Positions 10,466-28,821 are shown, counted from the stretch's first letter. The stretch is DNA of 64,000 bases from a virus (IMGVR_UViG_3300044623_001231); one strand, 5' to 3'. Translations and numbers: made by a program. Notes: generated from the letters alone by a model not told the origin.

Positions 10466-10477
10466 AGGGATTTTGGT

Positions 10478-11613: not shown

Positions 11614-11641
11614 TTACTATTAATTTTAGGGGTTTAATTGA

Positions 11642-11857: not shown

Positions 11858-11877
11858 AACTTTATTTTTTTTAATTA

Positions 11878-12222: not shown

Positions 12223-12335
12223 ATTTTTAGGGTTTTAAGGTTTTAAGTATCTCTCAATCTTTATACTCAAATATAGGAAATTAATTTGGATTGCACAAGC
12301 CTTTTGCCAATTATTTTCAAAAAAAGTTATTAACA
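12223..12335 (-). promoter_or_regulatory. full promoter-leader cassette
   Basis: includes the upstream element CAAGCCTTTTGCCAATTATTTTCAAAAAAAGTTATTAACA. Confidence 0.6.
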
Positions 12336-12350
12336 TTTTGGCATAAAAAA

Positions 12351-12375
12351 TAACTCATTGAAAATCAATGAGTTA
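12351..12375 (-). terminator. AT-rich hairpin (TAACTCATTG / CAATGAGTTA) plus a T-run on the minus strand
   Basis: perfect 10-bp inverted repeat. Confidence 0.55.
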
Positions 12376-12395
12376 TAAATTACTTATAATTTGTC

Positions 12396-12542
12396 TTACT
12401 TAGATTTTGATTTAGTTTGGTCCTCAATTACCAAAGAATCATACTCTTGTTGGAGTTTCTGAATCTCAGCTTTGTTAGCCTTTTTATCCTTGCTTAACTT
12501 TAATTTTAGTATTTTTTCAGTAATTTCTTGATTGCGTTCCAT
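12396..12542 (-). CDS. small basic protein (48 aa)
   Basis: read from the DNA: MERNQEITEKILKLKLSKDKKANKAEIQKLQQEYDSLVIEDQTKSKSK. Confidence 0.4.
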   Translation of the reverse strand: MERNQEITEKILKLKLSKDKKANKAEIQKLQQEYDSLVIEDQTKSKSK

Positions 12543-12546
12543 AGGT

Positions 12547-13125
12547 TTAAATATAATTTTCTGGATTAAGTTTCATATCTTCAATAACATCAATATGAGA
12601 TTGTTTATGCATTTCTAAAATATCATGCATCTCATCATATAACTTTTGTCTAGCTTCCTCACCAGCCTCTTCATCATCTCCCCAAAAAACATCAGTATCA
12701 TATTCATCGATATCTACAAATTCAGTATCATCATATTCCTCTGATGTGTAATATACTCCAGCAAAGTTATAACCTTCATCTTCAAATGTGTTGTGAACAA
12801 TTACATCTGATTTAATTTTTCTTAGATTATCTGCAAATCTTTCAATCCAACCATTAATCGGGTCCCATGCTGATGTAACTCTAACAACGGGTTCGTCTGG
12901 TGAATCATCTTCAATAGAACCATATAACCATTTAGCACCAGTATTATCACAATACCAATTCCTATCATATTCCAATGGTGTATCATCTCCAAATACTCTT
13001 TTAGTAAGTGCTTCGGTTTGAACATCCCACTCACCATCTTCGGTTTGAAATACTCTTTTAATTTCTGCAAGAACATCTTCGTTTGAGTTCTGAATAACAA
13101 TGTAATTTTCTATATTATTTGCCAT
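12547..13125 (-). CDS. highly acidic protein (DNA-mimic / anti-restriction candidate)
   Basis: 192 aa with long D/E-rich stretches. Confidence 0.5.
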   Translation of the reverse strand: MANNIENYIVIQNSNEDVLAEIKRVFQTEDGEWDVQTEALTKRVFGDDTPLEYDRNWYCDNTGAKWLYGSIEDDSPDEPVVRVTSAWDPINGWIERFADNLRKIKSDVIVHNTFEDEGYNFAGVYYTSEEYDDTEFVDIDEYDTDVFWGDDEEAGEEARQKLYDEMHDILEMHKQSHIDVIEDMKLNPENYI

Positions 13126-13131
13126 AACTTA

Positions 13132-13701
13132 TTATTTATTTAAAAATCCTATTACTTTTTCTTTAATCCCACTTTGTTTGATACCTTCATTACTTCTAGC
13201 AGTTAGTACAAAGTTATCAAGTCCATGTCCTTGATTGTATTCCGGACTCATATTAAGGTCATCTATTGCAACCCATGTTTCAATTTCAGAATTTAATTCC
13301 AAATACTTTTCAATCTCCAATATTCTTTTTTTACTATACCAACCCTTCCAACTGAAAAGTGCATCGGATTCTGAATCCCAATCACCTAAATTTGGTGTGA
13401 ATGCTAACGGTCTTTTACTAATACCTTGCTCAATATAGTAATCACCCAACTCTTCTAATGTAGCATGTAATTTCCAATCCGAACTAACAATTATTTCAGC
13501 ACCAGTTTCCTCAAGTACTTCATTCAATACCTTAATAGCTTTTTCATCGAAATTATCCAACCTTACATTCACCGGGGCTTCTTTTTGAATTAAAGATGAG
13601 TTTGGATTATCCGAACGATACTTACTCCATTTCTTACTTCTACCTCCCCAATTGTTAGAGAGGCAAATTACACCATCATTATCTAAAAATATAACTTTCA
13701 T
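13132..13701 (-). CDS. HAD-superfamily phosphatase (polynucleotide 3'-phosphatase or GmhB-like)
   Basis: motif I MKVIFLDNDGVI; late AIDDL motif. Confidence 0.55.
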   Translation of the reverse strand: MKVIFLDNDGVICLSNNWGGRSKKWSKYRSDNPNSSLIQKEAPVNVRLDNFDEKAIKVLNEVLEETGAEIIVSSDWKLHATLEELGDYYIEQGISKRPLAFTPNLGDWDSESDALFSWKGWYSKKRILEIEKYLELNSEIETWVAIDDLNMSPEYNQGHGLDNFVLTARSNEGIKQSGIKEKVIGFLNK

Positions 13702-14186
13702 TATTTCATTTTTTTAATACTATCCAACAATTCGGGATATTCCAATAGTAATTTTGGATTATTTTTCAAAGTTTGAATTGTAATATCATTCTTTAACTTA
13801 GTAGTACTCCAACCATGTGCTCTTGATGTGAATATAACTTTAGGTGTTAAGTTATCACCGGTAAATCGTTTACCAATATAATCCTCACCCAATATTCTAA
13901 CATCAGGTTTAAAAAACTCAATTAATTGTATAAGCTCTTCTTCAGTTTGATAAGTATAAACCGCATCAACTGATTCTAATTCCATTAAAGTATTATATCT
14001 TTCAGCACGAGGTACAACGGGTGTATATTTATTAGCCCTATCAATAGATGGGTCATTTTGTAGAAACACCATAAAGTAATCACAATGCTTTTTTGCAGTT
14101 TGAAAGGTGTAAACGTAACCTGGATGAATGATATCGAAGTTACCTGCGGTAAATCCTACTATCTTTTGTTCTCCGTTTATAATCAT
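13701..14186 (-). CDS. HIGH-motif nucleotidyltransferase (RfaE domain II / cytidylyltransferase-like)
   Basis: GFTAGNFDIIHPGYV (GxFDxxHxGH). Confidence 0.6.
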   Translation of the reverse strand: MIINGEQKIVGFTAGNFDIIHPGYVYTFQTAKKHCDYFMVFLQNDPSIDRANKYTPVVPRAERYNTLMELESVDAVYTYQTEEELIQLIEFFKPDVRILGEDYIGKRFTGDNLTPKVIFTSRAHGWSTTKLKNDITIQTLKNNPKLLLEYPELLDSIKKMK

Positions 14187-14187
14187 T

Positions 14188-14337
14188 TTATTCTTTGTTT
14201 ATAATCTCCCACTTAAAAGGAGGTCTATTTCTTTGATACTCACGCATTGACCAATCAATATCATCAGTTTTTAATGTTATTAATTCTGGTTGTGGGTTGT
14301 TATAATCCAACCAAGTGATTTTAATAATGTAATTCAT
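14188..14337 (-). CDS. small protein (49 aa)
   Basis: read from the DNA: MNYIIKITWLDYNNPQPELITLKTDDIDWSMREYQRNRPPFKWEIINKE; stop 1 nt before the next ATG. Confidence 0.4.
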   Translation of the reverse strand: MNYIIKITWLDYNNPQPELITLKTDDIDWSMREYQRNRPPFKWEIINKE

Positions 14338-14482
14338 ACTTTAAAATTTACCCCATTGGGATTTATGTCTATTTTCTTCAGCTATCTTAAAACCCAACCA
14401 AATATCCTTAAAGAATGATTTGATATTATTAATTATTTTGTTCATATTACAAATATACTAATTATTTTTTAATTATCCAAAT

Positions 14483-14827
14483 TTATTTCCAAAATATCTG
14501 TATTCCTATTAATATTGCTGCTAAAATCAATGATATACCTGTTTTTGCATTAATACCCTCATTCATAAATATAAATGTGAGAATAGCAAACGTAATCATC
14601 CCACCAGCTTGCCCTATAAATCTTCCCGGCCATAATTGCCCATCAAAGTGTTCAGCAACCAAAGAAGTTCCTTTAATAAAAATGTAAGATATTAAGGTCC
14701 CACCCATTAGAGATATTAAGAATGGATTACGTTTGAACCAAGGCCAAACGAATTGCCCATTGGTTTGTATCCAAATTATACATTGGGCTATTGTAAATAA
14801 TATAACTCCCCAAATTAGGTTTTTCAT
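14483..14827 (-). CDS. membrane protein (4 TM)
   Basis: ORF track, hydrophobic. Confidence 0.5.
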   Translation of the reverse strand: MKNLIWGVILFTIAQCIIWIQTNGQFVWPWFKRNPFLISLMGGTLISYIFIKGTSLVAEHFDGQLWPGRFIGQAGGMITFAILTFIFMNEGINAKTGISLILAAILIGIQIFWK

Positions 14828-14836
14828 ACAATCATT

Positions 14837-15148
14837 TTATTTATGAGATGAAAACCCTTTTATGGTACGGCCATCTTTTTCCAATTTAGTTTCGATATCT
14901 TCTAATCGTTTATCAAAATCATCCAAAGATGTATTGATATTATTTAGTGCGGAATTTATATCTGTAAATCCTTTATTAACATCATCTACTATTGTATAAT
15001 CATTTTCTTCTAATTCTTCCAATTTTCCACCATTGACTGGTATTTTGGGTTTAGATGTTCTAACAATTAAAATGGTTAACATTACTATTGGTGCAAATAT
15101 TAATAATACTATAAATATTGCTACGATTGTATTGAATATTTCTATCAT
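14837..15148 (-). CDS. membrane-anchored coiled-coil protein
   Basis: ORF track. Confidence 0.5.
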   Translation of the reverse strand: MIEIFNTIVAIFIVLLIFAPIVMLTILIVRTSKPKIPVNGGKLEELEENDYTIVDDVNKGFTDINSALNNINTSLDDFDKRLEDIETKLEKDGRTIKGFSSHK

Positions 15149-15152
15149 GCTT

Positions 15153-15764
15153 TTAAGTTATAAATTCAGTATCTTTCTTTAAGTCAACATAGACTCCTTT
15201 ATAAATACCTTCATTAAATTTATTAATAACCTTTTCAACCAACATTGTTGGAGTACCTGTTATTTGGTACAATCCATCCATTAGTTTAATGACATCTCTA
15301 GTTGAATCTATTGGATTAATTGGTGTAATTGTTTCTACTTCCAGTACACCATCTATATATTTTTGAAATTTTAAATAATTTTTAATTATTAACATATTAT
15401 CACTGTTAATTTCAACAACTACACCCTTTGATAAATCTCTGAATGTGTTCCATAAATACCAATTAACACATTTTAAATCAACTAATATTCTATTCTTAAA
15501 TGCCAATCTATATCCATCATCTAAAATTTCTTTCAATTTAGGTAAATCGGGACTATCAGATACCAAACAAACATCAGCATCCCAAGTTTTAGGATTTGAT
15601 GGGTTGTTTAAATACTCAGCAAATCCACCAGCTAAATAAACTTCATATTCAGATAAATCATGCAGCTCTGATAGTTCTTTGTACCACATAGTTAATGTGT
15701 ACAACTCAGGTCTACCCCACACAAGGGTAGTTGTTAAATTATCAAATCTACAAAAAAAATCCAT
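15153..15764 (-). CDS. hypothetical protein, possible minimal Pol-beta-type nucleotidyltransferase
   Basis: YLAGGFAEYL...WDADV resembles the GG...DxD NTase motif (weak). Confidence 0.4.
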   Translation of the reverse strand: MDFFCRFDNLTTTLVWGRPELYTLTMWYKELSELHDLSEYEVYLAGGFAEYLNNPSNPKTWDADVCLVSDSPDLPKLKEILDDGYRLAFKNRILVDLKCVNWYLWNTFRDLSKGVVVEINSDNMLIIKNYLKFQKYIDGVLEVETITPINPIDSTRDVIKLMDGLYQITGTPTMLVEKVINKFNEGIYKGVYVDLKKDTEFIT

Positions 15765-15925
15765 TATCTATTTTTAATACCTTTGTTTTTACCGGCAATT
15801 ATAGATTCTAATTTATCAGTTAGTTTTTCAATAGTATCTGAATTTCCTTGATTACCTTTCAGTTTCTCAGTTTTAATTGTATTGGTAAGTAAATTAATCA
15901 CTTCCTCTTTTTTCTTATCGTTCAT
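15764..15925 (-). CDS. small protein (53 aa)
   Basis: read from the DNA: MNDKKKEEVINLLTNTIKTEKLKGNQ...; TAATG overlap with the downstream gene. Confidence 0.35.
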   Translation of the reverse strand: MNDKKKEEVINLLTNTIKTEKLKGNQGNSDTIEKLTDKLESIIAGKNKGIKNR

Positions 15926-16220
15926 ACAGTTTGTTTAAATATTCAAATACTTTTTCTGAAAATAATGTATTGTACACATCACTTCCTATTTCAGATGCTT
16001 CAACTATGATACCTGATTTTGCATAATTCAATGCATATGCGATATCGTATTGTGAATATATTGGTTTTGCTCTATCAAGCTCTTCATTAATCATATTGAT
16101 AAAATCATCTGATTTTAACCACTCATCATACTCAGCATCTCTTAAATCAGCATTGTAAATATATCCTTCCAATTCTTCCTCTGGAATACTATTAATCATA
16201 AATTCTTTTGTTCTACCCAT
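15915..16220 (-). CDS. hypothetical protein
   Basis: ORF track. Confidence 0.5.
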   Translation of the reverse strand: MGRTKEFMINSIPEEELEGYIYNADLRDAEYDEWLKSDDFINMINEELDRAKPIYSQYDIAYALNYAKSGIIVEASEIGSDVYNTLFSEKVFEYLNKLYER

Positions 16221-16258
16221 TTTTATTAATTGTTATGTTATACTCTAATATACAAATT

Positions 16259-16996
16259 TTATACTTTTTCGTTTGTTGGTTTTAACCACATACCATCTTT
16301 AAATATTAGGTTTAAAAAACCAGGGATGATTTCATCTACATCCATAAGTAATCTAAGACTTTTTGGTGTATCATATTTCATCATCTTCATTAACTCTTCT
16401 CTAATTCTTTCACCACTAACAGTTTGTTCTAATTTCTTTAGGATGTTAGGTTGTTTCATTGCTTCCCAAATATCATCACTCATAACAAAATCCTTTGTGA
16501 TTGTAAATCTTAATGCTCTTAGAATTCTCAAAGGGTCATCCATCATAGTTTGTTTAGCTGGTAATGGAGTTCTTAATAAACCTATTTTTAAATCATCAAT
16601 TCCACCAAATATATCTATAAGGTTTCCATCAATATCCTCAGCCATAGCGTTTAATGTAAAATCTCTTCTAAGTAAATCATCTTCCAATGTTCCCAATTCT
16701 AAGATTGGTCTACGAGTTCCCTCAACATATCCAACTTCCTTTCTTGCCATTACGAAATCAGCAACCATCCCAGAGTATTTATGTTCTTTTGGGAACTTAG
16801 CTCTGATAGTAAAACACTCAGGTGTACTTAGGAATATTTCAAAATCATTTACAGTCATCCAATCTGTCATTATTTGAAATCCACTCTCTACAGTCCAATC
16901 TAAGTTGTCCAAAACAAATGTGAAGTCAATATCTTTTGTATCAACCCCTAACAACCTATCTCTAACACAACCCCCTACTTTGAATATCTTTGGCAT
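16259..16996 (-). CDS. cca: tRNA nucleotidyltransferase (CCA-adding, poly(A)-polymerase head domain), minimal
   Basis: MPKIFKVGGCVRDRLLGVDTKDIDF head-domain signature. Confidence 0.7.
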   Translation of the reverse strand: MPKIFKVGGCVRDRLLGVDTKDIDFTFVLDNLDWTVESGFQIMTDWMTVNDFEIFLSTPECFTIRAKFPKEHKYSGMVADFVMARKEVGYVEGTRRPILELGTLEDDLLRRDFTLNAMAEDIDGNLIDIFGGIDDLKIGLLRTPLPAKQTMMDDPLRILRALRFTITKDFVMSDDIWEAMKQPNILKKLEQTVSGERIREELMKMMKYDTPKSLRLLMDVDEIIPGFLNLIFKDGMWLKPTNEKV

Positions 16997-17096
16997 AACC
17001 TATCTTTTTTATTACATAGTAAATATACAAAATATAATTGATATATCCTAATATTTTAAAAGAAAAAGAGCAACTATTTTAGCTGCTCTTTATCAA

Positions 17097-18242
17097 TTAG
17101 TGAGAATCTCCCACATCATTTTTCTCTCCATAAATAAGGTAGTCAGGGTTTATAACCTTAGCTACTTTATTACGTTCACCTGTATGGTATTTGATTACAA
17201 TTCCTTCATGTGGAACCTTAGTACCTTCAATCATATTTTTAAATACGAATTTATCTTGCACCTCTTGCGACCAATTTCCAAAATGTAATATTTCAACATA
17301 AGGTAATTGTAATATATCTTTAATCATCAATTTAGAATTGATAGGACTTAAATACTCACCATTCTCCTTTACATCGAATCCTACAAACTCCATTTCTGTC
17401 AAACCATAATCATAGTTCTTTTGAATTCCGGCCCCATAGATTTCTCCATAGATTGTGATTCCATCTCCAATTTCTGGTTCCATTGAATTACTTTTAACGT
17501 ATTCCCATAACCTCTTTTTGATTTCATATTTATCCGCAATTTGGTACCAAACATTGGTATCATAGAAACCTTGAGAATCCGAACCCTTTTCTACATTATG
17601 TGAACCAACTACAAATTCATACCCAATCCACTTATCAGCAAACCCAATGAACTTCTTAACCTTATCCCAAAATGATAATTTAAGTTTCTTAACAATACCA
17701 TATCTAGCATTAGTACCATGTATCTTACGAGTAATTTCAACGGTATCTTCTTCAGTAAACATTCCATCCACATTTTTTAGGTTTGGGAATTTATAGTAGA
17801 TGTGGAAGTTTGGATTGTCTTGGTATCTAATCTTTCTACCTCCGGCTAATTGGATTTGTTTAACTGGTGGTTCGTATTTAGTAATTCCTAAGAATTCCAT
17901 ACAATCATCACCTTCGCCTAAATCAAAATCACCCATAGTAACTCTACCACGTAGGTATTTCATTGGGATAATTAAACATTCAGAATAAACACCTCTTAAT
18001 TTTACAGTCCTAACTCTATTACCTTTACGAAGATAGTTAGTTACACCCATCTCTTCAGAAAGTTCTTCAGGTATAACCGCATCAGTTGTAGCAATGATTG
18101 TTTCATCACCAATAGTAAACTCTCCCTTCTTAGTGATTGCATTCCAACCACCAGCAACTACCAATTCGATGTTATCAGCACCCTCAATTGGATTTACTTC
18201 TTTGATTTTTGCTATGTAGCAAACTGAATTTTCGTTTTTCAT
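17097..18242 (-). CDS. RNA ligase, Rnl2 family
   Basis: motif I KIHGTN; GEIYGAGIQKNYDY matches Rnl2 GEFAGPGIQKNVDY. Confidence 0.7.
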   Translation of the reverse strand: MKNENSVCYIAKIKEVNPIEGADNIELVVAGGWNAITKKGEFTIGDETIIATTDAVIPEELSEEMGVTNYLRKGNRVRTVKLRGVYSECLIIPMKYLRGRVTMGDFDLGEGDDCMEFLGITKYEPPVKQIQLAGGRKIRYQDNPNFHIYYKFPNLKNVDGMFTEEDTVEITRKIHGTNARYGIVKKLKLSFWDKVKKFIGFADKWIGYEFVVGSHNVEKGSDSQGFYDTNVWYQIADKYEIKKRLWEYVKSNSMEPEIGDGITIYGEIYGAGIQKNYDYGLTEMEFVGFDVKENGEYLSPINSKLMIKDILQLPYVEILHFGNWSQEVQDKFVFKNMIEGTKVPHEGIVIKYHTGERNKVAKVINPDYLIYGEKNDVGDSH

Positions 18243-18245
18243 TTC

Positions 18246-18659
18246 TTATAATTTTATTTCAAATCTATTTCTCATTCTTTCAACTGCTTCAGTTGGAACA
18301 CCATGTTGGTTTACACCACCATGTCTATTCTCAACTACTAATGAGTAAACCTGATATCCATAGGTTTTTGCTAAGGTAAAATATATATCCATCTCCCATT
18401 TTTGAGTAAAAGTGTTAGATACTACTATTTTTCTATAAAATTGGTCATTAACTAATGAATCCTTCATATAAGTTTCTACTGTATTTCTACAAAACTCATG
18501 TGCATCTTTTAGTTTAGAACCATCGAAGTTATAGTTACCTTCCTTATCATAAAAATACTTATCAGCTTCACATACTAAGAAATCACTTTCTACTATTGAA
18601 TTTGCTAATGTTGATTTACCACTACCTGGCAATCCTCTTAATAAAAATAATTCTTTCAT
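18246..18659 (-). CDS. polynucleotide kinase-like P-loop kinase
   Basis: GLPGSGKSTLA Walker A; 137 aa; adjacent to the RNA ligase. Confidence 0.6.
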   Translation of the reverse strand: MKELFLLRGLPGSGKSTLANSIVESDFLVCEADKYFYDKEGNYNFDGSKLKDAHEFCRNTVETYMKDSLVNDQFYRKIVVSNTFTQKWEMDIYFTLAKTYGYQVYSLVVENRHGGVNQHGVPTEAVERMRNRFEIKL

Positions 18660-18662
18660 AAC

Positions 18663-19325
18663 TTACTTTTTATAGTTTTCTACAATTGTATGATGGTCTT
18701 TATCTAAAAATCCATCAATAGGTTGTTTATCTAATATTCTAACAATATCACTCATACTAATTGGTGATAAGTTGTTACCATCTACACCAACATCCATAAC
18801 TTTACCTCTACCAACTCTTCGGTTAGGTGGTAAGTGAACGTGTCCATGTAAGTGAGGAACTCCCTTACCTAAACCATCCCAACTTGCTATTGGGTAGTGC
18901 ATACACACAAAATGAGTTCCATCATGTTTACCACTACCATCGGGCCATTTGATACTCAAATCTAAATATTGATGAACTGAACTGAATATCTCAGCGATAC
19001 CATCTCTATTGTTAGCTATGTGGTGGTCGTGGTTACCTAATACTAAGTGAATGTTTTGACAAACAATTCGGTTTCTAAATTCAGCGATTGAATCAAATCC
19101 ACCAAAAGACCAGTCACCTAAGTGAATTAAGATATCATCTTGTCCAACTACTGCATTGATATTATTAACTAATACGGCATTCATTTGGTTCAATGTATCG
19201 AAATCTCTGAAATGGTTTGCACCAGCTCTATCCCATTGTGTTGTTCCTTTACAAATGTTAGCATGGTTATAGTGGGTATCACTTGTGAACCATACTTTTT
19301 GTCCTTTATTTAGTAATATCTTCAT
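18663..19325 (-). CDS. calcineurin-like metallophosphoesterase (2',3'-cyclic phosphodiesterase / 3'-phosphatase candidate)
   Basis: GDWSFGG and LGNHDHH motifs. Confidence 0.65.
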   Translation of the reverse strand: MKILLNKGQKVWFTSDTHYNHANICKGTTQWDRAGANHFRDFDTLNQMNAVLVNNINAVVGQDDILIHLGDWSFGGFDSIAEFRNRIVCQNIHLVLGNHDHHIANNRDGIAEIFSSVHQYLDLSIKWPDGSGKHDGTHFVCMHYPIASWDGLGKGVPHLHGHVHLPPNRRVGRGKVMDVGVDGNNLSPISMSDIVRILDKQPIDGFLDKDHHTIVENYKK

Positions 19326-19327
19326 AA

Positions 19328-19474
19328 CTATCTATCTTTTAATCGTTTGAATACTGCTTTTATGTTTGGTTCTTCTAATTTAAGTTTCAAAGATTGCCAT
19401 TTTGATTCTAAGAAATCATTGTACTCTTTCTCAGTTTTGAAACCCATTCTTTTCCAGTCCATTGTAGTTTTCAT
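19328..19474 (-). CDS. small protein (48 aa)
   Basis: read from the DNA: MKTTMDWKRMGFKTEKEYNDFLESKWQSLKLKLEEPNIKAVFKRLKDR. Confidence 0.35.
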   Translation of the reverse strand: MKTTMDWKRMGFKTEKEYNDFLESKWQSLKLKLEEPNIKAVFKRLKDR

Positions 19475-19553
19475 ATCTCTTAATCTTATACTCAAATGTA
19501 GTAAAAATTATTGACATATACAAGCTTTTTGCCGATTATTTTCAAAAAAGTTA
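19475..19553 (-). promoter_or_regulatory. promoter-leader cassette (leader truncated before the AAACCCCTAAAA block)
   Basis: atctcttaatcttatactcaaatgtag...caagctttttgccgattattttcaaaaaagttactaac. Confidence 0.5.
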
Positions 19554-19970
19554 CTAACTTCTATACCTTAAATCATTTTGCCTGTAAACACTTAATACTG
19601 AACCCTGTCCATGTGTTATTGCGAACTGATAACCATAATAATCATAGATAGTTGATGGGAAATTCTCAGTTAAACTATCTATTGGTTCAATTTCAGTTCC
19701 ATAATTTTGAGCCAATTCCCACATCAAATCCATAATATGTAATGGTTTATCTGAATATGTATTATAATGCCTTTCATCGTACTTACTTTGTTTCTCTAAA
19801 ACATCCAGCATTAAGTAATCAAATGTAGAATCATCACAAACACCATATCTTTGTAATAGTTTATTTGCTCTTTCCAATTGGATTCTATCCTTTAAGGCAA
19901 GTTTAGTAAAATAATCTACCATTGCCTTTTCACCTTCTGGACTTTTCATATATACCAATACGTCTTTCAT
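19554..19970 (-). CDS. hypothetical protein
   Basis: ORF track. Confidence 0.5.
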   Translation of the reverse strand: MKDVLVYMKSPEGEKAMVDYFTKLALKDRIQLERANKLLQRYGVCDDSTFDYLMLDVLEKQSKYDERHYNTYSDKPLHIMDLMWELAQNYGTEIEPIDSLTENFPSTIYDYYGYQFAITHGQGSVLSVYRQNDLRYRS

Positions 19971-19973
19971 AAG

Positions 19974-20588
19974 TTATAATGAATTAGGATAGTAAAGTAA
20001 TGTTGGATTTTTCTTTTGAATATCCGGTATCTCCTTACCACGTTCTTTTATTTGTTTATTAAATTCCATAACATCAAATCGTTTGGTAATCAAATGAACT
20101 CCATTTTTTGTTGGAATCTTTGTGATTATCTTACCACCATCATTTGGCTTAACCATCTCAATGATATTTGAAATCATATTTTGTATATGTTGTGATGTAG
20201 TATCAACATCAACAATCCATCTCTTCTCTTGTGTTTTTATTTGTCCAACAACTGAATCGAATAATCCCTTTTGATTATGGTTACCATTCTGAATACGTTG
20301 TGCCAAATCAACCATCATACTAAGTGATACATCAAAGTGATTTTGTTTCTGAACGTGAATGTAAGCTCTTGCCTTAAACATCTCACACATTTGAACAATC
20401 TCATCCCATCTACGGTCCAAATGGTCAATACTCTCAATACAATAAGTTTTGATTGTCCTTACTGATTGATGATTATCTCTTTCTCCTTCAGGTTGGTCCT
20501 TCTTTCGTTTGAAAACATATAACATATAAAAGTCACCCCGCTTTTCAAAGTTCAATAATGGCTTAATTAATTCTAAATTGTTTATCAT
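19974..20588 (-). CDS. hypothetical protein
   Basis: ORF track. Confidence 0.5.
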   Translation of the reverse strand: MINNLELIKPLLNFEKRGDFYMLYVFKRKKDQPEGERDNHQSVRTIKTYCIESIDHLDRRWDEIVQMCEMFKARAYIHVQKQNHFDVSLSMMVDLAQRIQNGNHNQKGLFDSVVGQIKTQEKRWIVDVDTTSQHIQNMISNIIEMVKPNDGGKIITKIPTKNGVHLITKRFDVMEFNKQIKERGKEIPDIQKKNPTLLYYPNSL

Positions 20589-22042: not shown

Positions 22043-22426
22043 TTATTGGTTTCTATACATTTTTACAAAATCCTCCAAATCGGATTGAACTTTGTTAATC
22101 CTATCGAATGCGGCTTTAACCTCCACACCTGATACAATCTTATCTCTGAATTTATTTTCTAATTCATCAATTGTTCTTTTTAATAATTCGATTTGAGATA
22201 TTGTAAACTTTACTTCATCTGTTGATATCTTATTAACTCTATTAATCTCACCATCTATACGTTGATTAACTAACCTATCTCTGGATGATATTTCCCTATC
22301 CAATTCATCAATTAAATCCTCCAATTGGTTGATTTCTTTTTGTAATTTTCTACCTTTATAAAAGCTAAAACCAAATAGACCTATTGAAAATCCAAAACTC
22401 AGTAAAATTAAATTTGTGTAATCCAT
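22043..22426 (-). CDS. membrane-anchored coiled-coil protein
   Basis: ORF track. Confidence 0.5.
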   Translation of the reverse strand: MDYTNLILLSFGFSIGLFGFSFYKGRKLQKEINQLEDLIDELDREISSRDRLVNQRIDGEINRVNKISTDEVKFTISQIELLKRTIDELENKFRDKIVSGVEVKAAFDRINKVQSDLEDFVKMYRNQ

Positions 22427-22455
22427 GCTATCTTAAATTAAATTATTAATATTTT

Positions 22456-22541
22456 GCGGAAAGAGTAGGATTCGAACCCACGATACCTTTCAGTATGCCG
22501 GTTTTCAAGACCGGTGCAATCGACCAACTCTGCCATCTTTC
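22456..22541 (-). tRNA. tRNA-Ser(TGA), class II
   Basis: hand-folded: anticodon stem CCGGT/ACCGG, loop CTTGAAA, long variable arm, T-loop GGTTCGAATCC. Confidence 0.8.
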
Positions 22542-22548
22542 CTCTTTT

Positions 22549-22620
22549 GTAGTCCCACCGGGAATCGAACCCGACTTTTCAGGATGAAAACCTGATGACC
22601 TAACCGATAGTCGATAGGAC
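22549..22620 (-). tRNA. tRNA-Glu(TTC)
   Basis: anticodon stem TCAGG/CCTGA, loop TTTTCAT; acceptor with 2 GU pairs. Confidence 0.75.
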
Positions 22621-22760
22621 CATATAAATGTGAGCCAAACTTATGTACTTAGTGGGTGTACTCCGTTTATACTACTCTCACATTCAAATCAGTAGTGTGA
22701 TGTTAATGGTTGAAAGATATTTACCTTCCTTTCGGCCTACCATCGTGGCCCATGCGTTTG

Positions 22761-22836
22761 TGGAGCGAATAGCAGGAATCGAACCTGCATCTCCAACTTG
22801 GAAGGATGGAGTAATAAGCCATTATACGATATTCGC
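22761..22836 (-). tRNA. tRNA-Gly(TCC), CCA encoded
   Basis: acceptor GCGAATA/TATTCGC, loop CTTCCAA. Confidence 0.75.
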
Positions 22837-23791
22837 TTATATACGATGAGAATACTCGTTTTAATGAACCAGCTTTATAAGGGTTATTGGTTGCCTTAAT
22901 TTCCACTTCCTTTTGAGAAGTACCAATTCAATGTGGGTAAGTAATGTCCTACCACTCATAAAGTTACAAACTACTCTCTTTGTAGTCCACCTCTTCGAAT
23001 CTGCCGACCCGATTAACACCTCGCGATGCTAGAAGTTTTTCGAAAGAATCACATTTCCCTTGAGAGGATTTGTGGCAGGGAACAGCTCCCTACTATGTAC
23101 ACACCTTTCGTCTGCAACTGGTAACCTCTTTCTCTAGTTTGTTTTTTGATTTTGCGTCAATAGGCAAATTGAGTTTTGGTTTGTAGATAAATTCAAGTAG
23201 TGGATTACCACTAGCTCCGCCCCATTTTGAAGAACGGAATACTATACTACTCGATACGTTATCTCTAACGTCATACTTTAAGATTACTTCAGTACCCACT
23301 CTTTGGTGAGAGGTAGGTAAGGATGATAACAACACCACTTGTACTTCATCATACCTTTCGGTTTTAAGTAACCTTTAATATTGAATCACGCAATGATAAG
23401 GAGAGATTAAGTCCTCACTTCTTGCATTAATTCTATGGGTTATTTTTATTGGTGTTCCCACCTCAACTGAAGTATCTACAATACCCCAGTCATCATTCCA
23501 TTTCGCTACGGAGTTACCCTCACTACATTCAGGAACAATGATATCCCACTTGCCTACTCAAGCTCCATCCGAAGATGAAACCGCAAACCCCTCTAAACCA
23601 AAGAGATTCACTTTATCCTACTTTCGTAGTTTATTTAACGACCATAGGCGGCCGTTATACACTATGTAGAACAAGTCTACTATGTGCAATATTTTCAATA
23701 CTTTCAAAGAACTAATTTTCTTTTTCAAAGATACGAATAATTTTTCAATTATCCTAATCTTTTTTTAATTATTTTTCAATAATTTATTTAG

Positions 23792-23864
23792 TTGCGGGAG
23801 AGGGAATCGAACCCCCGACCTCAAGGTTATGAGCCTTGCGAGCTACCGCTGCTACTATCCCGCT
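23792..23864 (-). tRNA. tRNA-Met(CAT), initiator-like
   Basis: loop CTCATAA; 3' end CCCGCAAC with a 1:72 mismatch and A73, as in bacterial tRNA-fMet. Confidence 0.7.
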
Positions 23865-23966
23865 ATATATGTTTAAGAACTTAATTTTCAACTTCTATGT
23901 ATATAAGTATATACAAATATACCAAAACGTAAAAAAAATCGAAAAATAATTTAATTTTTTTATTGT

Positions 23967-24040
23967 GGACCAGAATGGATTCGAACCATTGACCTACGCA
24001 TTATGAGTGCGGTGCTCTAACCAACTGAGCTACAAGTCCA
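23967..24040 (-). tRNA. tRNA-Met(CAT), elongator-like (or Ile2)
   Basis: GTAGCTCAGTTGGTTAGAGCAC ... CTCATAA; resembles elongator Met. Confidence 0.7.
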
Positions 24041-24174
24041 AAACGAGAGAGGGTTCGGGTCTTTCAAGGTTTCTGATTAAGTGCAATGAGTGACGTCTTT
24101 CTACTATAAACCTTTTTTCGAAAATTAATACACTCTACCTCTTAATTACAGCTTCACTCCCTCTCTATTTTTTA

Positions 24175-24360
24175 CTACTTTGCGTCTGCTTCAGTAGTAA
24201 TTTCTGCTACAGTTGAATCAGTTGCGATTACAGCTGATGAATCCGTTGCTACTGCAGTTGAGTCTGTTGTTGACGTTTCTGTGTTTGATTGTTTGTTTCC
24301 ACAAGATGCCATAACTACCGTTACTGCTACTACTGTTAAAATTGCCATTACTTTTTTCAT
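24175..24360 (-). CDS. small lipoprotein (lipobox VMASC) with an S/T/A/D-rich tail
   Basis: MKKVMAILTVVAVTVVMASC signal; internal start of the tracked ORF. Confidence 0.45.
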   Translation of the reverse strand: MKKVMAILTVVAVTVVMASCGNKQSNTETSTTDSTAVATDSSAVIATDSTVAEITTEADAK

Positions 24361-24418
24361 AACTTTTGTTTTAATTGTTTTAAATTGATAAATAAACATA
24401 GGAACCTACCTATATTTG

Positions 24419-24513
24419 TAATCATAATTGGATTCGAACCAATTCCAGCTTTACAATAAAGAACCTTTCGATTCAACCTTTGTGAGGTGCCGCCAACCAA
24501 TGGCCTTATGATT
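24419..24513 (-). ncRNA. atypical tRNA-like element (95 nt)
   Basis: perfect 7-8-bp acceptor (AATCATA(A)) and perfect T-arm ATTGG-TTCGAAT-CCAAT, but no canonical anticodon arm could be folded. Confidence 0.45.
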
Positions 24514-24581
24514 ATTTAAATGAACTATACAAATATACGAAATGTTTTTCACAATTCCAAATATTTTTTCATTTATTTTTG

Positions 24582-24655
24582 TGGAGGATATCGGAGTCGA
24601 ACCGATGACCCCCTGCGTGCAAGGCAGGTGCTCTAGCCAGCTGAGCTAATCCCCC
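24582..24655 (-). tRNA. tRNA-Ala(TGC)
   Basis: G3:U70 identity pair, loop CTTGCAC. Confidence 0.8.
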
Positions 24656-24752
24656 ATTAATCACATCGTACCGGCATTCTGGTTCTCGCTAACAGAAATT
24701 CCATCTCATTTAACCCAGTCTGTGCGATGTGGGTACCGGAGGATGTGATTTG

Positions 24753-24831
24753 TAGTCAGAGCCGGATTCGAACCGGATAAGCAACCACTTTATTGGATTC
24801 GGGAACCGTCCCTCATTACGCCCATCTGACC
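24753..24831 (-). ncRNA. atypical tRNA-like element (79 nt) with an extra GGGACGGTTCCC hairpin
   Basis: acceptor GGTCAGA/TCTGACT and T-loop TTCGAAT present; D/anticodon region non-canonical. Confidence 0.4.
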
Positions 24832-24906
24832 ATTTTAAACATCCAGTCTGACCTTCCAGACAGTACAAGTCGGTATTAATTTCACGTGCCGTTTTGTAGT
24901 GAATGT

Positions 24907-25149
24907 TTAATATCCTATTTGTTCTTTAATCTCCCATTGCTTTTCAATAGAAATTCTTTCAATTCTCTCTACTGGTACAAACCCATCCAATCCCTTATCT
25001 TTAACATCTTCAAAATGTTCGATAGTATCTAAACGAAATCCGAACTTATATCTGATGTATTGGAACTTTTCACCATCCCAATATGCAGTATGGTTATTTC
25101 TGCAAAATCCATTGTACCAACCTTCTTTCATTTCAATTTTTGGTATCAT
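24907..25149 (-). CDS. hypothetical protein embedded in the tRNA array
   Basis: ORF track, 80 aa. Confidence 0.45.
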   Translation of the reverse strand: MIPKIEMKEGWYNGFCRNNHTAYWDGEKFQYIRYKFGFRLDTIEHFEDVKDKGLDGFVPVERIERISIEKQWEIKEQIGY

Positions 25150-25163
25150 ACTTTTTGTTTTAG

Positions 25164-25237
25164 TGAACCCATCAGGAATCGAACCTGAAACCTACACATT
25201 AGAAGTGTGTTGCTCTATCCAATTGAGCTATGGGTCC
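25164..25237 (-). tRNA. tRNA-Arg(TCT)
   Basis: anticodon stem ACACA/TGTGT, loop CTTCTAA. Confidence 0.8.
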
Positions 25238-25451
25238 AAATTCACACTCTATTTTATCCAACTACAAGTGTGGTGGTTGTCCCCATAGCGGGCCCATTGG
25301 GCCTTTGATTGGGTTAGGAATAAACCAATTAAACTCTTTCGGAGCAGATGGTTAATCTGGATAGAGCCTTTCCCTATCAGAAGTCCCATATGGCCATCAC
25401 ACCACTTCTCATCATATTGGACATACTATCCGTTGTATGTTACGGAACGTG

Positions 25452-25523
25452 CGGTCTCACCGGGAATCGAACCCGGCATACCGCCGTGACAGGGCGGCGT
25501 TATAGCCGATTAACTATGGGACC
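25452..25523 (-). tRNA. tRNA-Asp(GTC)
   Basis: anticodon stem CCGCC/GGCGG, loop CTGTCAC, G73. Confidence 0.8.
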
Positions 25524-25609
25524 AAAAGTGATAGGTGACCCTCCTATCGTGAAATGATATATCATTTCTTTTCTTTATAGAATCCGAAGATACTGTAGGA
25601 ACATTTTTG

Positions 25610-25682
25610 AGCCTCCGGTCGGGCTCGAACCAACCACCTGCTGATTACAAATCAGCTGCTCTACCAAATGAGCTACGGAGGC
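25610..25682 (-). tRNA. tRNA-Thr(TGT)
   Basis: perfect acceptor GCCTCCG, loop TTTGTAA. Confidence 0.8.
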
Positions 25683-25843
25683 AAAATTAGGAAAGCTACC
25701 TGATATCTTTACAGCCGAATTAGGTACGGATTTCTACATTTAGAATGTTCCTCAAATTCAAACCCCTTTTATGTCCGTACTATGTGGAGGATAAAAAACC
25801 ACATTAGTTGATAAAAAATGAATTCTTCACCTCTTTCCTATTG

Positions 25844-25929
25844 TACCGATGGGCGGACTCGAACCGCCACGAGCATTACTACCCAAGGGATTTTAAGTCC
25901 CTCGTGTCTACCATTTCACCACATCGGCA
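25844..25929 (-). tRNA. tRNA-Leu(TAA), class II
   Basis: anticodon stem AGGGA/TCCCT, loop CTTAAAA, long variable arm. Confidence 0.8.
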
Positions 25930-26045
25930 TTTTAGATTTTCAACATGTCAAAGAACAAAACTGTCTCTCTTTTACTATGTAAAGATACAACATAATTTTG
26001 AATTATACAAGCTTTTTTAAAAACTTTTATAATTTTTGTGGAGGT

Positions 26046-26070
26046 GGCGAGAGTCGAACTCGCGTCCAAA
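26046..26070 (-). other. orphan tRNA 3' half (T-arm GCGAG-TTCGACT-CTCGC plus acceptor CACCTCC-A) with no matching 5' half within 100 nt
   Basis: shares the CACCUCCA 3' end with tRNA-Phe; pseudo-tRNA, split tRNA or recombination scar. Confidence 0.4.
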
Positions 26071-26488
26071 TACGGATTTAATAAACATCATTCACAAGCT
26101 TAGTACATTTTTCTTAATGTACAAAATAGATAAAGATTTATACATTCATTATCATTAATGTTTCCAACTCGATTTCGGGTTCAGTTGGGTTCCACCTGAG
26201 TTCACATTCTATTTTAAGTCCCACGATGTGTGCGGGAGGGATTATGCTGCTACAGCGTAATCGGCACCAACGAAAGACATAGCATCTTCGAAGGTCATTG
26301 TAGATAATTCTACTGCGTTTATTGTTCGATAGGTATTTACGGATTTCCATCTAACCCGGCTTGCAACTTACCAATTCATCGTACCTGTCAAAACCAGGCA
26401 CCCCCATAAATCAAAGAACTTATCTTTTTTGATACTTCAAATATACAAAATCTTTTTGGTATTTCCAAATTTAATTTCAATTATTTTG

Positions 26489-26562
26489 TGACCCCGAATG
26501 GATTCGAACCATTGACTCCCTCATTAAAAGTGAGGTGCTCTAACCAACTGAGCTACGAGGTC
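26489..26562 (-). tRNA. tRNA-Lys(TTT)
   Basis: anticodon stem CCTCA/TGAGG, loop CTTTTAA. Confidence 0.8.
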
Positions 26563-26568
26563 ATTCTG

Positions 26569-26638
26569 AGGTTAAGGTTGGAATCGAACCAACTCCGTAG
26601 ATTTTGCAGACCTACCGGCCTCCAAGACCATCCTAACC
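26569..26638 (-). tRNA. tRNA-Cys(GCA)
   Basis: loop CTGCAAA, short D-loop, 70 nt. Confidence 0.7.
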
Positions 26639-26642
26639 ATTC

Positions 26643-27095
26643 CTATCTACAAGTGTAATCTGCTGCCCTTGTTGCGATTTGCATATCAGGTTTAAGATTA
26701 ACTTCATATCCTAATGAGTTTGCCCAACCCTTTGTAGATTGTACTAACTTAGAAGAGTAATGCTTTTCATTTAAGTTGTAATCTAAATCAATCTGAATAG
26801 TTACACCTAAGTTACTCCTTAACCATTCAGCCACTTCAATAGAATATTCAGTTTCTTTCCACAATCTTGTCCACTTATCTAAAATCTTATCTACTTTTAG
26901 TTTGTGATTAATATAGTGTACACCTGTATTACCATACCTATACGCAATTACAATTGAATATGATGTACAATCTGATAAGTTTTGAGAATCACACCCAATA
27001 TGAATATCCGCATGTGGACATTCTTTTAATATATCAATCGTATGTTGTACGATATCTACCACTTCCCCATTTACTTTTCTAAAAACTTTTACCAT
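26643..27095 (-). CDS. hypothetical protein (possible RNase H-like fold) inside the tRNA array
   Basis: 150-aa ORF flanked by tRNA-Cys and tRNA-Phe. Confidence 0.5.
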   Translation of the reverse strand: MVKVFRKVNGEVVDIVQHTIDILKECPHADIHIGCDSQNLSDCTSYSIVIAYRYGNTGVHYINHKLKVDKILDKWTRLWKETEYSIEVAEWLRSNLGVTIQIDLDYNLNEKHYSSKLVQSTKGWANSLGYEVNLKPDMQIATRAADYTCR

Positions 27096-27121
27096 TACTA
27101 TTAATATTAATTATTAAATTG

Positions 27122-27194
27122 TGGAGGTGAGTGGAATCGAACCACTTCCTCTGGATTTTCAGTCCAGCGCTTCTACCAAGTTAGCTTCACCTCC
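27122..27194 (-). tRNA. tRNA-Phe(GAA)
   Basis: perfect acceptor GGAGGTG/CACCTCC, loop CTGAAAA. Confidence 0.85.
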
Positions 27195-27199
27195 TTTTG

Positions 27200-27270
27200 C
27201 ACGGGTAGAAAGATTCGAACTTCCATCTAAGCTTTTGGAGAGCCGTATGCTACCATTGCACCATACCCGT
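27200..27270 (-). tRNA. tRNA-Trp(CCA)
   Basis: loop CTCCAAA, G73. Confidence 0.7.
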
Positions 27271-27276
27271 ATTTTG

Positions 27277-27348
27277 TACACTTAGAGAGATTCGAACTCC
27301 CATTATCCGGTTCGTAGCCGGAGGTTCTATCCGTTGAACTATAAGTGC
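27277..27348 (-). tRNA. tRNA-Arg(ACG)
   Basis: anticodon stem TCCGG/CCGGA, loop CTACGAA. Confidence 0.8.
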
Positions 27349-27352
27349 ATTG

Positions 27353-27434
27353 TACCCAAGGAGAGACTCGAACTCTCAAGCCTTTCGGCCACGGTTTCTA
27401 AGACCGCTGTGTCTACCAATTCCACCACTCGGGC
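27353..27434 (-). tRNA. tRNA-Leu(TAG), class II
   Basis: loop CTTAGAA, variable arm GGCCGAAAGGC. Confidence 0.75.
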
Positions 27435-27441
27435 ATTGTTG

Positions 27442-27515
27442 GGTGATTAATGGGATTCGAACCCATCCTATCAGAATCACAATCTGACGTGCTAACCGCT
27501 AACACTATAAACACC
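27442..27515 (-). tRNA. tRNA-His(GTG) with encoded G-1:C73
   Basis: anticodon stem TCAGA/TCTGA, loop TTGTGAT; extra 5' G pairs with C73. Confidence 0.8.
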
Positions 27516-27572
27516 ATGTTGTGTATAATATATTATCCATTTACCCCATATATCTGAGTTTTATATAATATA

Positions 27573-27643
27573 TTGTACATTGTTGTGTGTATGAGGTTCG
27601 AACTCATTTGGTCATCCTTATGAGAGATAACTCTTTTCCACTA
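27573..27643 (-). tRNA. third CAT-anticodon tRNA (Ile2/Met candidate) with a weak D-arm
   Basis: loop CTCATAA in a GU-rich stem; T-arm ATGAG-TTCGAAC-CTCAT. Confidence 0.45.
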
Positions 27644-27840
27644 AGCCACACAATTTAAAAGAAGTATAACCAGAATTTTGTGTAAACCTATCATTTGTCT
27701 TTTTGCCCCAACCTTGTCCGAATTGCTCACCTTCATAGACTATTTTGGGTTGCATCCTCAGTAGTAAAACGAATTTCTTCTCCTACTTTAAGCAATGATG
27801 TTCTGAGTTTCCTCTCCGTAGAGCGATAGGAACTTCTTTG

Positions 27841-27928
27841 CGGAGAGTATAGGATTCGAACCTATGGAACCCTTACGAGTTCAACACCTTAGCAGGGTGC
27901 CGCTTTAAACCAACTCAGCCAACTATCC
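27841..27928 (-). tRNA. tRNA-Ser(GCT), class II
   Basis: loop CTGCTAA, long variable arm. Confidence 0.75.
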
Positions 27929-27933
27929 AATTG

Positions 27934-28007
27934 TTGGTAATATAGGAATCGAACCTATAACCTTTCGCGTATCAGGCGAATGCTCTAACCAATTGAGCTA
28001 ATTACCA
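27934..28007 (-). tRNA. tRNA-Ile(GAT)
   Basis: anticodon stem TTCGC/GCGAA, loop CTGATAC. Confidence 0.8.
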
Positions 28008-28085
28008 ATAAGTTGCAGGATATCGCTTAACCTGCGGTGTTGATATCATTACACACCTTTGATGTTACCACCAGCGATTTTTTTG

Positions 28086-28169
28086 TGGGAGCAGAAGGAT
28101 TCGAACCTACTACCTATGCGGGTTACCAGATTTACAGTCTGGCGCCTAACCAATTCGTGCGTTACTCCC
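28086..28169 (-). tRNA. tRNA-Tyr(GTA), class II
   Basis: anticodon stem CCAGA/TCTGG, loop CTGTAAA. Confidence 0.8.
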
Positions 28170-28275
28170 AATGGCGTTCCATATTACTCACATCTGATAA
28201 CCATATTGGGTTACCCACTTAATCTTACAACAGCTTTAAACTGAGAGATTGTAAGAATGTGTATGGAACATTTTG

Positions 28276-28349
28276 TAGAAGATATAGGATTCGAACCTAT
28301 GACCCTTTGGATGTAAACCAAATGCTCTAACCAACTGAGCTAATCTTCT
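28276..28349 (-). tRNA. tRNA-Val(TAC)
   Basis: anticodon stem TTTGG/CCAAA, loop TTTACAT. Confidence 0.8.
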
Positions 28350-28354
28350 ATTTG

Positions 28355-28430
28355 TCTAGATGGTAGGATTCGAACCTACGTGCTCTCGCGTCCAAGGCGA
28401 GCGAGAAAAACCTGACTCCTCTACATCTAG
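28355..28430 (-). tRNA. tRNA-Pro(TGG)
   Basis: anticodon stem CTCGC/GCGAG, loop CTTGGAC, 11-nt D-loop. Confidence 0.75.
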
Positions 28431-28436
28431 TTATTG

Positions 28437-28507
28437 TTATCCCTCGAGGACTCGAACCTCGACTGCCTGAATCAAAGTCAGGTGTCCTGCCATTAGACCA
28501 AAGGATA
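28437..28507 (-). tRNA. tRNA-Gln(TTG)
   Basis: anticodon stem CCTGA/TCAGG, loop CTTTGAT. Confidence 0.8.
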
Positions 28508-28544
28508 ATTTGTGTTACCAATATTTCAAAGAACTATACTTTTG

Positions 28545-28616
28545 CGGGGAGGGAGAATTTCGAAATCTCGACCTGATGATTAACAGTCATCTGCTCTTCC
28601 TCTGAGCTACCACCCC
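28545..28616 (-). tRNA. tRNA-Asn(GTT)
   Basis: anticodon stem GATGA/TCATC, loop CTGTTAA. Confidence 0.75.
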
Positions 28617-28630
28617 AATAAATTAAAAAA

Positions 28631-28659
28631 CCCCTAACTAAATTTTCATCAGTTAGGGG
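28631..28659 (-). terminator. intrinsic terminator (9-bp stem CCCCTAACT / AGTTAGGGG) plus T6 on the minus strand, separating the protein genes from the tRNA array
   Basis: perfect inverted repeat seen in the sequence. Confidence 0.7.
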
Positions 28660-28695
28660 TTCTTAAATACTTTACTATTTAATCTCTACATTATA

Positions 28696-28821
28696 TCATT
28701 CAAATATAATATCCCCTAACTTTGTATACGGTAATCTATTATCCGATTTGCGAATCGCACAATTACCAACCCAACTAAACGTTGATTGATTAAGGCCCAT
28801 ATGTTGTATTAGAGTTTTCAT
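28696..28821 (-). CDS. small protein (41 aa, start at the internal Met)
   Basis: the promoter -7 element lies inside the longer tracked ORF, so the downstream ATG is used. Confidence 0.35.
   Translation of the reverse strand: MKTLIQHMGLNQSTFSWVGNCAIRKSDNRLPYTKLGDIIFE

Follow-up and report, generated by a model that had tools for sequence, protein, structure and literature searches.

The window, a 64,000-nucleotide stretch of viral DNA (IMGVR_UViG_3300044623_001231), contains 25 tRNA genes and a tmRNA gene between positions 22456 and 28616, all of them on the minus strand, on which all credible (ATG-start) open reading frames of the window are also found. Among the products encoded are GroEL, thymidylate synthase, DNA ligase, an RNA ligase (17097-18242), GMP reductase/IMPDH, a cytidylyltransferase fusion, a MoxR-type ATPase with a VWA protein, and a DNA methylase fused to an I-TevI-type DNA-binding domain. 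The gene for GroEL (37106-38707) has one for GroES directly upstream of it, and a ferredoxin-dependent bilin reductase (PF05996) is encoded a few genes farther upstream. Contigs of 270,754 and 271,043 bp carry the gene for this GroEL protein, which occurs in 191 blocks of the assembly collection; the source is therefore taken to be a widely seen jumbo phage of about 271 kb. A megablast search of window positions 1-20000 against GenBank phages gave no match, and thus no deposited phage genome is close to the source phage.

Within the tRNA array, the tmRNA gene (26036-26405, minus strand; 115 bits with the Rfam model) encodes an unusually long predicted tag, AVELSTMTFEDAMSFVGADYAVAA, and is accompanied by a Bacteroidota-type promoter pattern of its own at 26469-26438. 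Three tRNAs with a CAU anticodon are encoded on the minus strand (23791-23864, 23965-24039 and 27582-27654), the third of which, at only 24.7 bits, falls short of the 29-bit gathering score of the Rfam tRNA model; presumably these are the initiator, the elongator and a lysidine-type tRNA-Ile. Two of the minus-strand spacers of the array, 28170-28274 (Val to Tyr) and 27515-27581 (Met to His), fold more stably than shuffled sequences (z = -3.8 and -3.0, respectively). The former is closed by GUUCCAUA…UAUGGAAC, and the Thr to Asp, Asp to Arg and Ser to Met spacers likewise open with …GTTCC…. Neither the Val to Tyr nor the Met to His spacer matched an Rfam family, and a permissive Rfam scan of 24040-28700 (E up to 1) returned nothing beyond the tRNAs, the tmRNA and sub-threshold matches taken as chance; such spacers may represent either small RNAs with structure that have escaped annotation or elements used in processing.

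The gap bounded by the minus-strand genes for tRNA-Gly (22761-22836) and tRNA-Met (23791-23864) is the subject of the original prediction, according to which 22840-23790 holds no credible open reading frame and exceeds its surroundings in GC content. Both statements are borne out. The longest frame in the gap is a GTG-start frame of 81 amino acids at 23093-23338, which has a low-complexity product and overlaps a variable linker in the RNA described below, and every other frame is of 52 amino acids or fewer. Among 33 homologous RNAs the longest stop-free stretch ranges from 53 to 125 codons and varies in strand, frame and position, so that neither a reading frame nor a gene is conserved in the block; an intact protein gene in relatives would have refuted the original prediction. 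The GC content is 0.36-0.41 over 22850-23750, compared with 0.27-0.34 in the flanking coding DNA.

The GOLLD match and the extent of the RNA

GOLLD is among the largest non-coding RNAs of bacteria and phages, and very few natural RNAs are known to build closed cages free of protein. A cmscan search against Rfam, proposed as a check alongside the original prediction, returned this family: the RF02032 (GOLLD) model matches 23254-22843 on the minus strand with 257.2 bits (gathering score 150) and an E value of 4.6e-72, over model positions 1-416 of 416, untruncated and with the pseudoknot included. In a scan of the whole window at gathering thresholds, GOLLD is the sole match besides the tRNAs and the tmRNA. 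By covariance-model score, the RNA is a member of the known GOLLD family. RF02032 models the conserved 3' domain only, leaving some 400 nt upstream unexplained by Rfam; these are accounted for by the alignments presented in the following section.

The conserved core of the RNA occupies 813 nt of the minus strand, from 23655 to 22843, and is preceded by a predicted leader of about 40-65 nt. The upstream 135 nt or so (23656-23790), which comprise an AT-rich spacer, a promoter-like sequence and the leader, lie outside the conserved fold. The minimum free energy of the core is -236.4 kcal/mol, as against -202.3 +/- 6.6 kcal/mol for shuffled sequences (z = -5.1). The domains and internal elements are as follows.

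23255-23655, minus strand: GOLLD 5' domain, from the alignment with env-38 (the solved GOLLD RNA, see below) beginning at the first residues of its construct, and from 32 viral homologues
22843-23254, minus strand: GOLLD 3' domain, from Rfam RF02032
23119-23110 with 22971-22962, minus strand: long-range pairing marked as a pseudoknot in Rfam
about 23130-23190, minus strand: A-rich variable linker, an unpaired A-rich stretch in the Rfam alignment, corresponding to residues 497-538 of env-38
about 23150-23128, minus strand: linker hairpin UUUGC-CUAUUGAC-GCAAA, read by eye
within 22843-23254, minus strand: terminal hairpin with the loop UAUUCU

The pseudoknot pairing is intact in the window, each of its positions showing 2-6 pair types in the 33 homologues, and the remaining helices of the 3' domain are intact also, two of them lacking one pair each. 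In the linker, where ARAGORN found no tRNA (about 23130-23190), the top pairs of the hairpin appear by eye to compensate among homologues (GC/GC, AC/GU, GAA/UUC, CA/UG, GUUAA/UUAAC). Automatic alignment and RNAalifold applied to the linker by itself gave no consensus structure, and the hairpin is accordingly a reading of the sequences only.

We put the probability that the block belongs to the GOLLD family (RF02032) at roughly 0.95-0.98. The original prediction, which placed a structured RNA without coding capacity on the transcribed strand, here the minus strand, agrees with the folding energy, the Rfam match and the covariation described below. Where it spoke of one or more structured RNAs, the structure stands and the number is settled at one, a single RNA of about 815-850 nt from a family already described; none of the candidates it listed (an intron remnant, a ribozyme, a long leader or a degenerated tRNA) is supported, the Rfam family being GOLLD. 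Both stems that it singled out are present on the minus strand, ACC-GAAA-GGU as a hairpin at 23362-23353 and the other at 23578-23565, where the strand given as CCATC is in fact UCAUC (UCAUC-UUCG-GAUGG) and the first pair is a U-G wobble. The block copy adds no new principle and is a new example of an already known RNA. Of the papers listed when the literature was searched for GOLLD in combination with huge or jumbo phages or with Bacteroidetes, none contains the phrase 'GOLLD RNA'.

Homologues, covariation and the solved cage

In a sensitive blastn search of GenBank phages, only the huge uncultured phages LR756502 and LR745206 match past the flanking tRNAs. Both match in the 5' half of the block, and both carry Rfam GOLLD matches (275 and 287 bits) directly downstream of the blastn-matched part. 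In the three-way alignment with these two phages, identity begins near 23655 and continues to 22843. An invariant 16-mer from the 5' half, GAGGGTAACTCCGTAG, led to 52 IMG/VR viral contigs, 41 of which contain GOLLD homologues by profile search; 36 of the 41 cover essentially the entire 5'+3' profile of about 838 positions, while five end at the edge of the locus. The nearest GOLLD relatives (L019, L027, L017 and L026) lie on viral contigs of up to 288 kb, and close relatives from several other contigs share the architecture of the window RNA.

Covariation was analysed in an alignment of 33 full-length sequences, comprising the window and 32 viral-contig homologues. RNAalifold predicts 191 pairs with a covariation term of -53 kcal/mol, and 144 of these show compensatory changes, a compensatory pair being one for which at least one sequence has both sides changed with the pairing kept. 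An independent RNAalifold run on the same alignment gave 37 helices, all of which are paired in the window, with four lacking one pair each; essentially every consensus helix is therefore intact in the window RNA.

The best comparison is provided by GOLLD env-38, an 833-nt RNA from the marine metagenome scaffold JCVI_SCAF_1096627009515, for which a cryo-EM structure has been determined (Kretsch et al., 2025; PMC12286853). It forms a closed, hollow RNA cage of 14 subunits with D7 symmetry, in which residues 1-420 make up the caps and residues 421-833 the rings, and a linker (residues 497-538) is disordered and directed toward the cage interior (PMC12286853). The env-38 sequence was taken from a machine-read copy of Supplementary Table 4 of the same paper, which contains 816 nt rather than 833; as this copy is short by about 17 nt, residue numbers were matched by local context. 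End to end, and with the variable 5' domain included, the window RNA and env-38 are approximately 71% identical (a value based on the 816-nt copy). The ends of the env-38 construct correspond to window positions 23655 and 22843, and both RNAs start with …GGCCGC… and end with …GUAUUCUCA…. The 5' domain (23655-23255) is homologous to env-38 residues 1-420 and covaries in the 33 sequences, and, as judged from these alignments, the 5' half of the window RNA is of the same type as that of env-38.

The contacts between subunits of the env-38 cage (B1-B10; PMC12286853) were used as a second point of comparison, which covers B1-B8, the bridges that the env-38 copy, some 17 nt short, allowed to be placed with confidence. 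The corresponding elements of the window, all on the minus strand, are as follows.

23625-23622, minus strand: GAAA loop of bridge B1, from the env-38 mapping
23093-23075, minus strand: hairpin with the B1 receptor (U-G/A-U pairs), present
23522-23507, minus strand: invariant GAGGGUAACUCCGUAG, bridge B2 (GGGUAAC)
23458-23455, minus strand: GGAA loop of bridge B3, conserved
about 23408-23402 and 23266-23261, minus strand: kissing-loop partners of bridge B4, AAUCUCU and AGAGAU
23338-23333 and 23307-23304, minus strand: GUGGUG loop and ACCA loop of bridge B5, conserved
23229-23225, minus strand: CAAAA loop of bridge B6, conserved
junction just 5' of the pseudoknot strand (GAGA) and about 23065-23062 (UCUC), minus strand: J13/15-L20 contact of bridge B7
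23005-23002, minus strand: GGCA loop of bridge B8, conserved

The loops of B1, B2, B3, B5, B6 and B8 are the same in both RNAs, and the partners of B4 and B7 are complementary in the window RNA as they are in env-38. At B4, AUCCC/GGGAU of env-38 is replaced by AUCUC/GAGAU in the window, a compensating double change by which the central pair is U-A instead of C-G; this pair (286:507) is C-G in 22 sequences and U-A in five, the window included. B4 pairs in only 75% of alignment cells, the outer pairs failing in more distant clades. At the B7 contact the covariation is clean: pair 649:723 is GC in 29 sequences and UA in four, and pair 650:722 is AU in 19, CG in 13 and GC in one, with zero unpaired sequences at either, and the covariation score of the contact (0.38, versus 0.09 in shuffles) is far above that of every slid control. 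The mappable inter-subunit contact nucleotides are thus conserved or changed in a compensating way, and it is probable, with a fair margin for doubt, that the window copy would form a 14-mer of the env-38 type.

The two RNAs also differ in some respects. The short GAAA hairpin of the window (23362-23353) stands where env-38 has a longer GGGGAAACCCC arm, and the window RNA has an extra, clade-specific 5' hairpin (23686-23660). The window RNA belongs to a phage genome of about 271 kb, whereas env-38 comes from a short metagenomic scaffold. The env-38 RNA was described as 'downstream of Met-tRNA' (PMC12286853), and the window RNA is placed likewise, with tRNA-Met(CAU) (23791-23864, minus strand) 135 nt upstream of the GOLLD core; tRNA-Met is also the nearest same-strand upstream tRNA, at distances of 88-797 nt, in L002, L033, L019, L018, L017, L026, L047 and L023. 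In many related loci a tmRNA is found near GOLLD on the same strand.

Alternative readings of the block

Recognisable sequence might persist in a decayed, non-functional GOLLD relic that has lost the capacity to fold or assemble. This is very unlikely for the present copy, in which all 37 consensus helices are paired, apart from one missing pair in each of four, and the Rfam score lies far over the threshold across the complete model. The mappable contact loops are conserved, with the double change at B4 compensating rather than disruptive, and the architecture is kept in close relatives on several other contigs; the phage itself is widely seen, its GroEL occurring in those 191 blocks of the assembly collection.

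A self-splicing intron, an intron remnant or another ribozyme in the tRNA array would be in keeping with the many GNRA- and UUCG-capped stems of the block, with the occasional occurrence of group I introns in phage tRNA regions and with the gene elsewhere in the window for a DNA methylase with an I-TevI-type DNA-binding domain. Against it, when 22500-24200 was scanned permissively with the Rfam models (E up to 10), no group I or II intron, ribozyme, RNase P, 6S or tRNA appeared in the block, and between 22840 and 23790 there was likewise no match to tmRNA, ROOL or OLE, whether at the gathering score or at E up to 10. Both flanking tRNAs are complete, so nothing is interrupted, and homology to GOLLD accounts for the whole length; we consider this origin exceedingly improbable. 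An intron remnant was rejected on the ground that the block interrupts no gene, and a long leader on the ground that a tRNA rather than an mRNA comes after it. Hardly any probability attaches, either, to an origin from several degenerated tRNA genes or to a small protein-coding gene, as suggested by the position in a tRNA array, by the single open frame of 81 codons (23093-23338) and by the motif GGTGGACTAC, which the original prediction had likened to the 3' part of a tRNA-Glu. That motif (22991-22982, minus strand) lies in a junction that the GOLLD 3' domain conserves in both the Rfam alignment and the homologue alignment, and is hence no tRNA remnant; ARAGORN detected no tRNA in the block, where the Rfam tRNA model (RF00005) also gave nothing even at E up to 10. 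The 81-codon frame is of low complexity and lies over the variable linker, and the 32 homologues do not retain its frame, strand and position. A GOLLD RNA with intact helices remains the preferred reading of the block.

Flanking signals and a proposed role

The region upstream of the GOLLD core contains three elements, which are listed here together with further sites of the same kinds.

23726-23757, minus strand: promoter-like site of Bacteroidota type, TTAG (23757-23754), 20 nt, TATCTTTG (23733-23726)
23687-23712, minus strand: upstream motif GTTCTTTGAA-AGTATTGAAAATATTG, consensus GTTCTTTRAA..TATTG after an A-rich run
23660-23686, minus strand: clade-specific 5' hairpin P0 (27 nt), CACAUAGUAGA-CUUGU-UCUACAUAGUG, folded, just upstream of the core
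14481-14450, 20944-20913, 24561-24530, 29964-29933, 39330-39299, 45779-45748 and 60212-60181, minus strand: example sites of the promoter pattern
23712-23703, 26419-26410, 25956-25947 and 28534-28525, minus strand: window sites of the GTTCTTT[GA]A motif, with many more in L002-L054

The site at 23757-23726 is one mismatch from the pattern TTTG-N19-21-TAnnTTTG, exact copies of which occur 15 times in the window as compared with 4.8 expected, a number that none of 100 shuffles reached. Most of the exact copies are near-identical, of the form TTTGGA...TTTCGTATATTTG, and lie on the minus (gene) strand, and a TAnnTTTG box is found upstream of many GOLLD homologues. The strongly conserved promoter-like element TTTGGA-N-TTT(C/T)GTATATTTG agrees with the Bacteroidota -33/-7 consensus. 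The enrichment of the pattern in the window points to a host among the Bacteroidota, and we infer from the match to the pattern that the site at 23757-23726 would act as a promoter. A generic sigma-70 and terminator scan of 22300-24700 gave seven promoter-like sites where 7.5 are expected; two 'terminator-like' matches in the same interval were discounted, since both fall within GOLLD helices.

The GTTCTTTRAA..TATTG motif is shared with other stable-RNA genes, being found upstream of the tmRNA, tRNA-Leu and tRNA-Gln genes of the window as well. The GTTCTTTRAA motif occurs in 100 copies in 543 kb (the window plus related loci), 67 of which lie no more than 60 nt upstream of a same-strand GOLLD (36), tRNA (26) or tmRNA (5). 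A fixed -33-like element upstream of the motif was looked for and none was found, for which reason the motif is not called a host-type promoter; its distance from the host-type -7 box ranges between 11 and 38 nt. The motif may act as a compact promoter specific to the phage or as a signal for processing. Between the motif and the core, the outer and the inner stem of P0 both compensate (by eye) in the closest relatives, L033, L019, L018, L017 and L006, which suggests that the 5' end of the RNA lies upstream of 23686; other clades have one or two UUCG hairpins at the P0 position.

At the other end, the gene for tRNA-Gly(UCC) (22761-22836, minus strand) begins 6 nt past the last GOLLD base, and a tRNA or tRNA-like element also follows GOLLD within 10 nt in L001, L019, L030 and L047. 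With these four other loci alike, cleavage by RNase P is the simplest route to the 3' end, and, judging from the arrangement of the genes, tRNA-Gly is likely to define the GOLLD 3' end through an RNase P cut at the tRNA 5' end. Four related loci (L018, L006, L033 and L019) have no standard tRNA after GOLLD and contain short tRNA-like pieces instead, for example …GGTTCGATTCC… T-arm mini-helices ending …CTTCGTAGTG, which may be processing handles.

Taken in order, GOLLD would be transcribed from its own host-type (Bacteroidota-like) promoter within the tRNA/tmRNA array of the phage, and its 3' end would be released by the RNase P cut at tRNA-Gly, 6 nt downstream. The RNA would then fold as two domains and assemble into a protein-free, closed cage of 14 subunits with D7 symmetry, in which the 5' domains would form the caps and the 3' domains the rings, the A-rich linker being directed inward. 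As to what such a cage is for, published hints on GOLLD include its rise in phage-induced lysis, a ribosome pull-down and the presence, sometimes, of tRNAs within the linker (PMC12286853). On the basis of these lysis and ribosome notes, and of the fixed place of the RNA among 25 tRNAs, a tmRNA and an RNA ligase gene, it may be speculated that the cage serves the takeover of translation by the phage in lytic growth, enclosing or holding tRNAs, ribosomes or related factors. A role in phage control of translation is the most likely direction for GOLLD function, yet as a specific proposal it is tentative and less probable than not.

A narrower and more doubtful idea is that one dedicated signal (the A-rich run, GTTCTTTRAA and TATTG), placed 0-60 nt before the mature RNA, is common to GOLLD, the tRNAs and the tmRNA in this phage group and would define a phage 'stable-RNA regulon'. 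The signal would be either a compact promoter, recognised by a polymerase or sigma factor that the phage specifies, or a processing site common to these RNAs. Production of the GOLLD cage would keep pace with that of the tRNAs and the tmRNA, and the cage would act on these, for instance by enclosing or holding them via the inward linker with its small covarying hairpin. The motif common to stable-RNA genes is in any case a small, separate and testable lead. More broadly, the window copy is of the same subtype as the structurally solved env-38 and lies in a complete genomic context, that of a phage of about 271 kb with 25 tRNAs, a tmRNA, an RNA ligase gene and host-type promoters pointing to Bacteroidota. 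It is accompanied by dozens of full-length relatives, in which covariation backs the 5' domain and two inter-subunit contacts (B4 and B7). This context could aid the choice of an experimental system and tests linking the cage to phage translation control.

Among other known systems, the closest deposited relatives of the window RNA are the GOLLD RNAs of LR745206 (635 kb) and LR756502 (642 kb); no other record of the GenBank phage collection matches the block in both its halves. These have the domain order of the window and adjoin tRNAs, and LR745206 also has the upstream GTTCTTTGAA motif. Identity to the window is only 64-76% in the matched parts; moreover, both phages have a large insertion in one arm of the 5' domain (alignment columns 430-480), which is absent from the window, and UUCG hairpins where the window has P0. 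The GOLLD RNAs known from prophages of Lactobacillales and from tRNA arrays of Mycobacterium (Weinberg et al., 2009, in which the family was first described; Morgado et al., 2020; both as cited in PMC12286853) share with the window, as far as they are described there, the RF02032 3' domain and the association with phages or prophages and tRNA clusters, and within the family as a whole conservation is lower in the 5' region (PMC12286853). The ROOL RNA is likewise large, ornate and encoded by phages and prophages near tRNA islands, and builds an RNA-only cage (PMC12286853). In sequence and fold ROOL is unrelated to GOLLD, its model gave no match in the window, and its cage is an 8-mer as opposed to the 14-mer of GOLLD; by analogy, the two RNAs may plausibly work alike.
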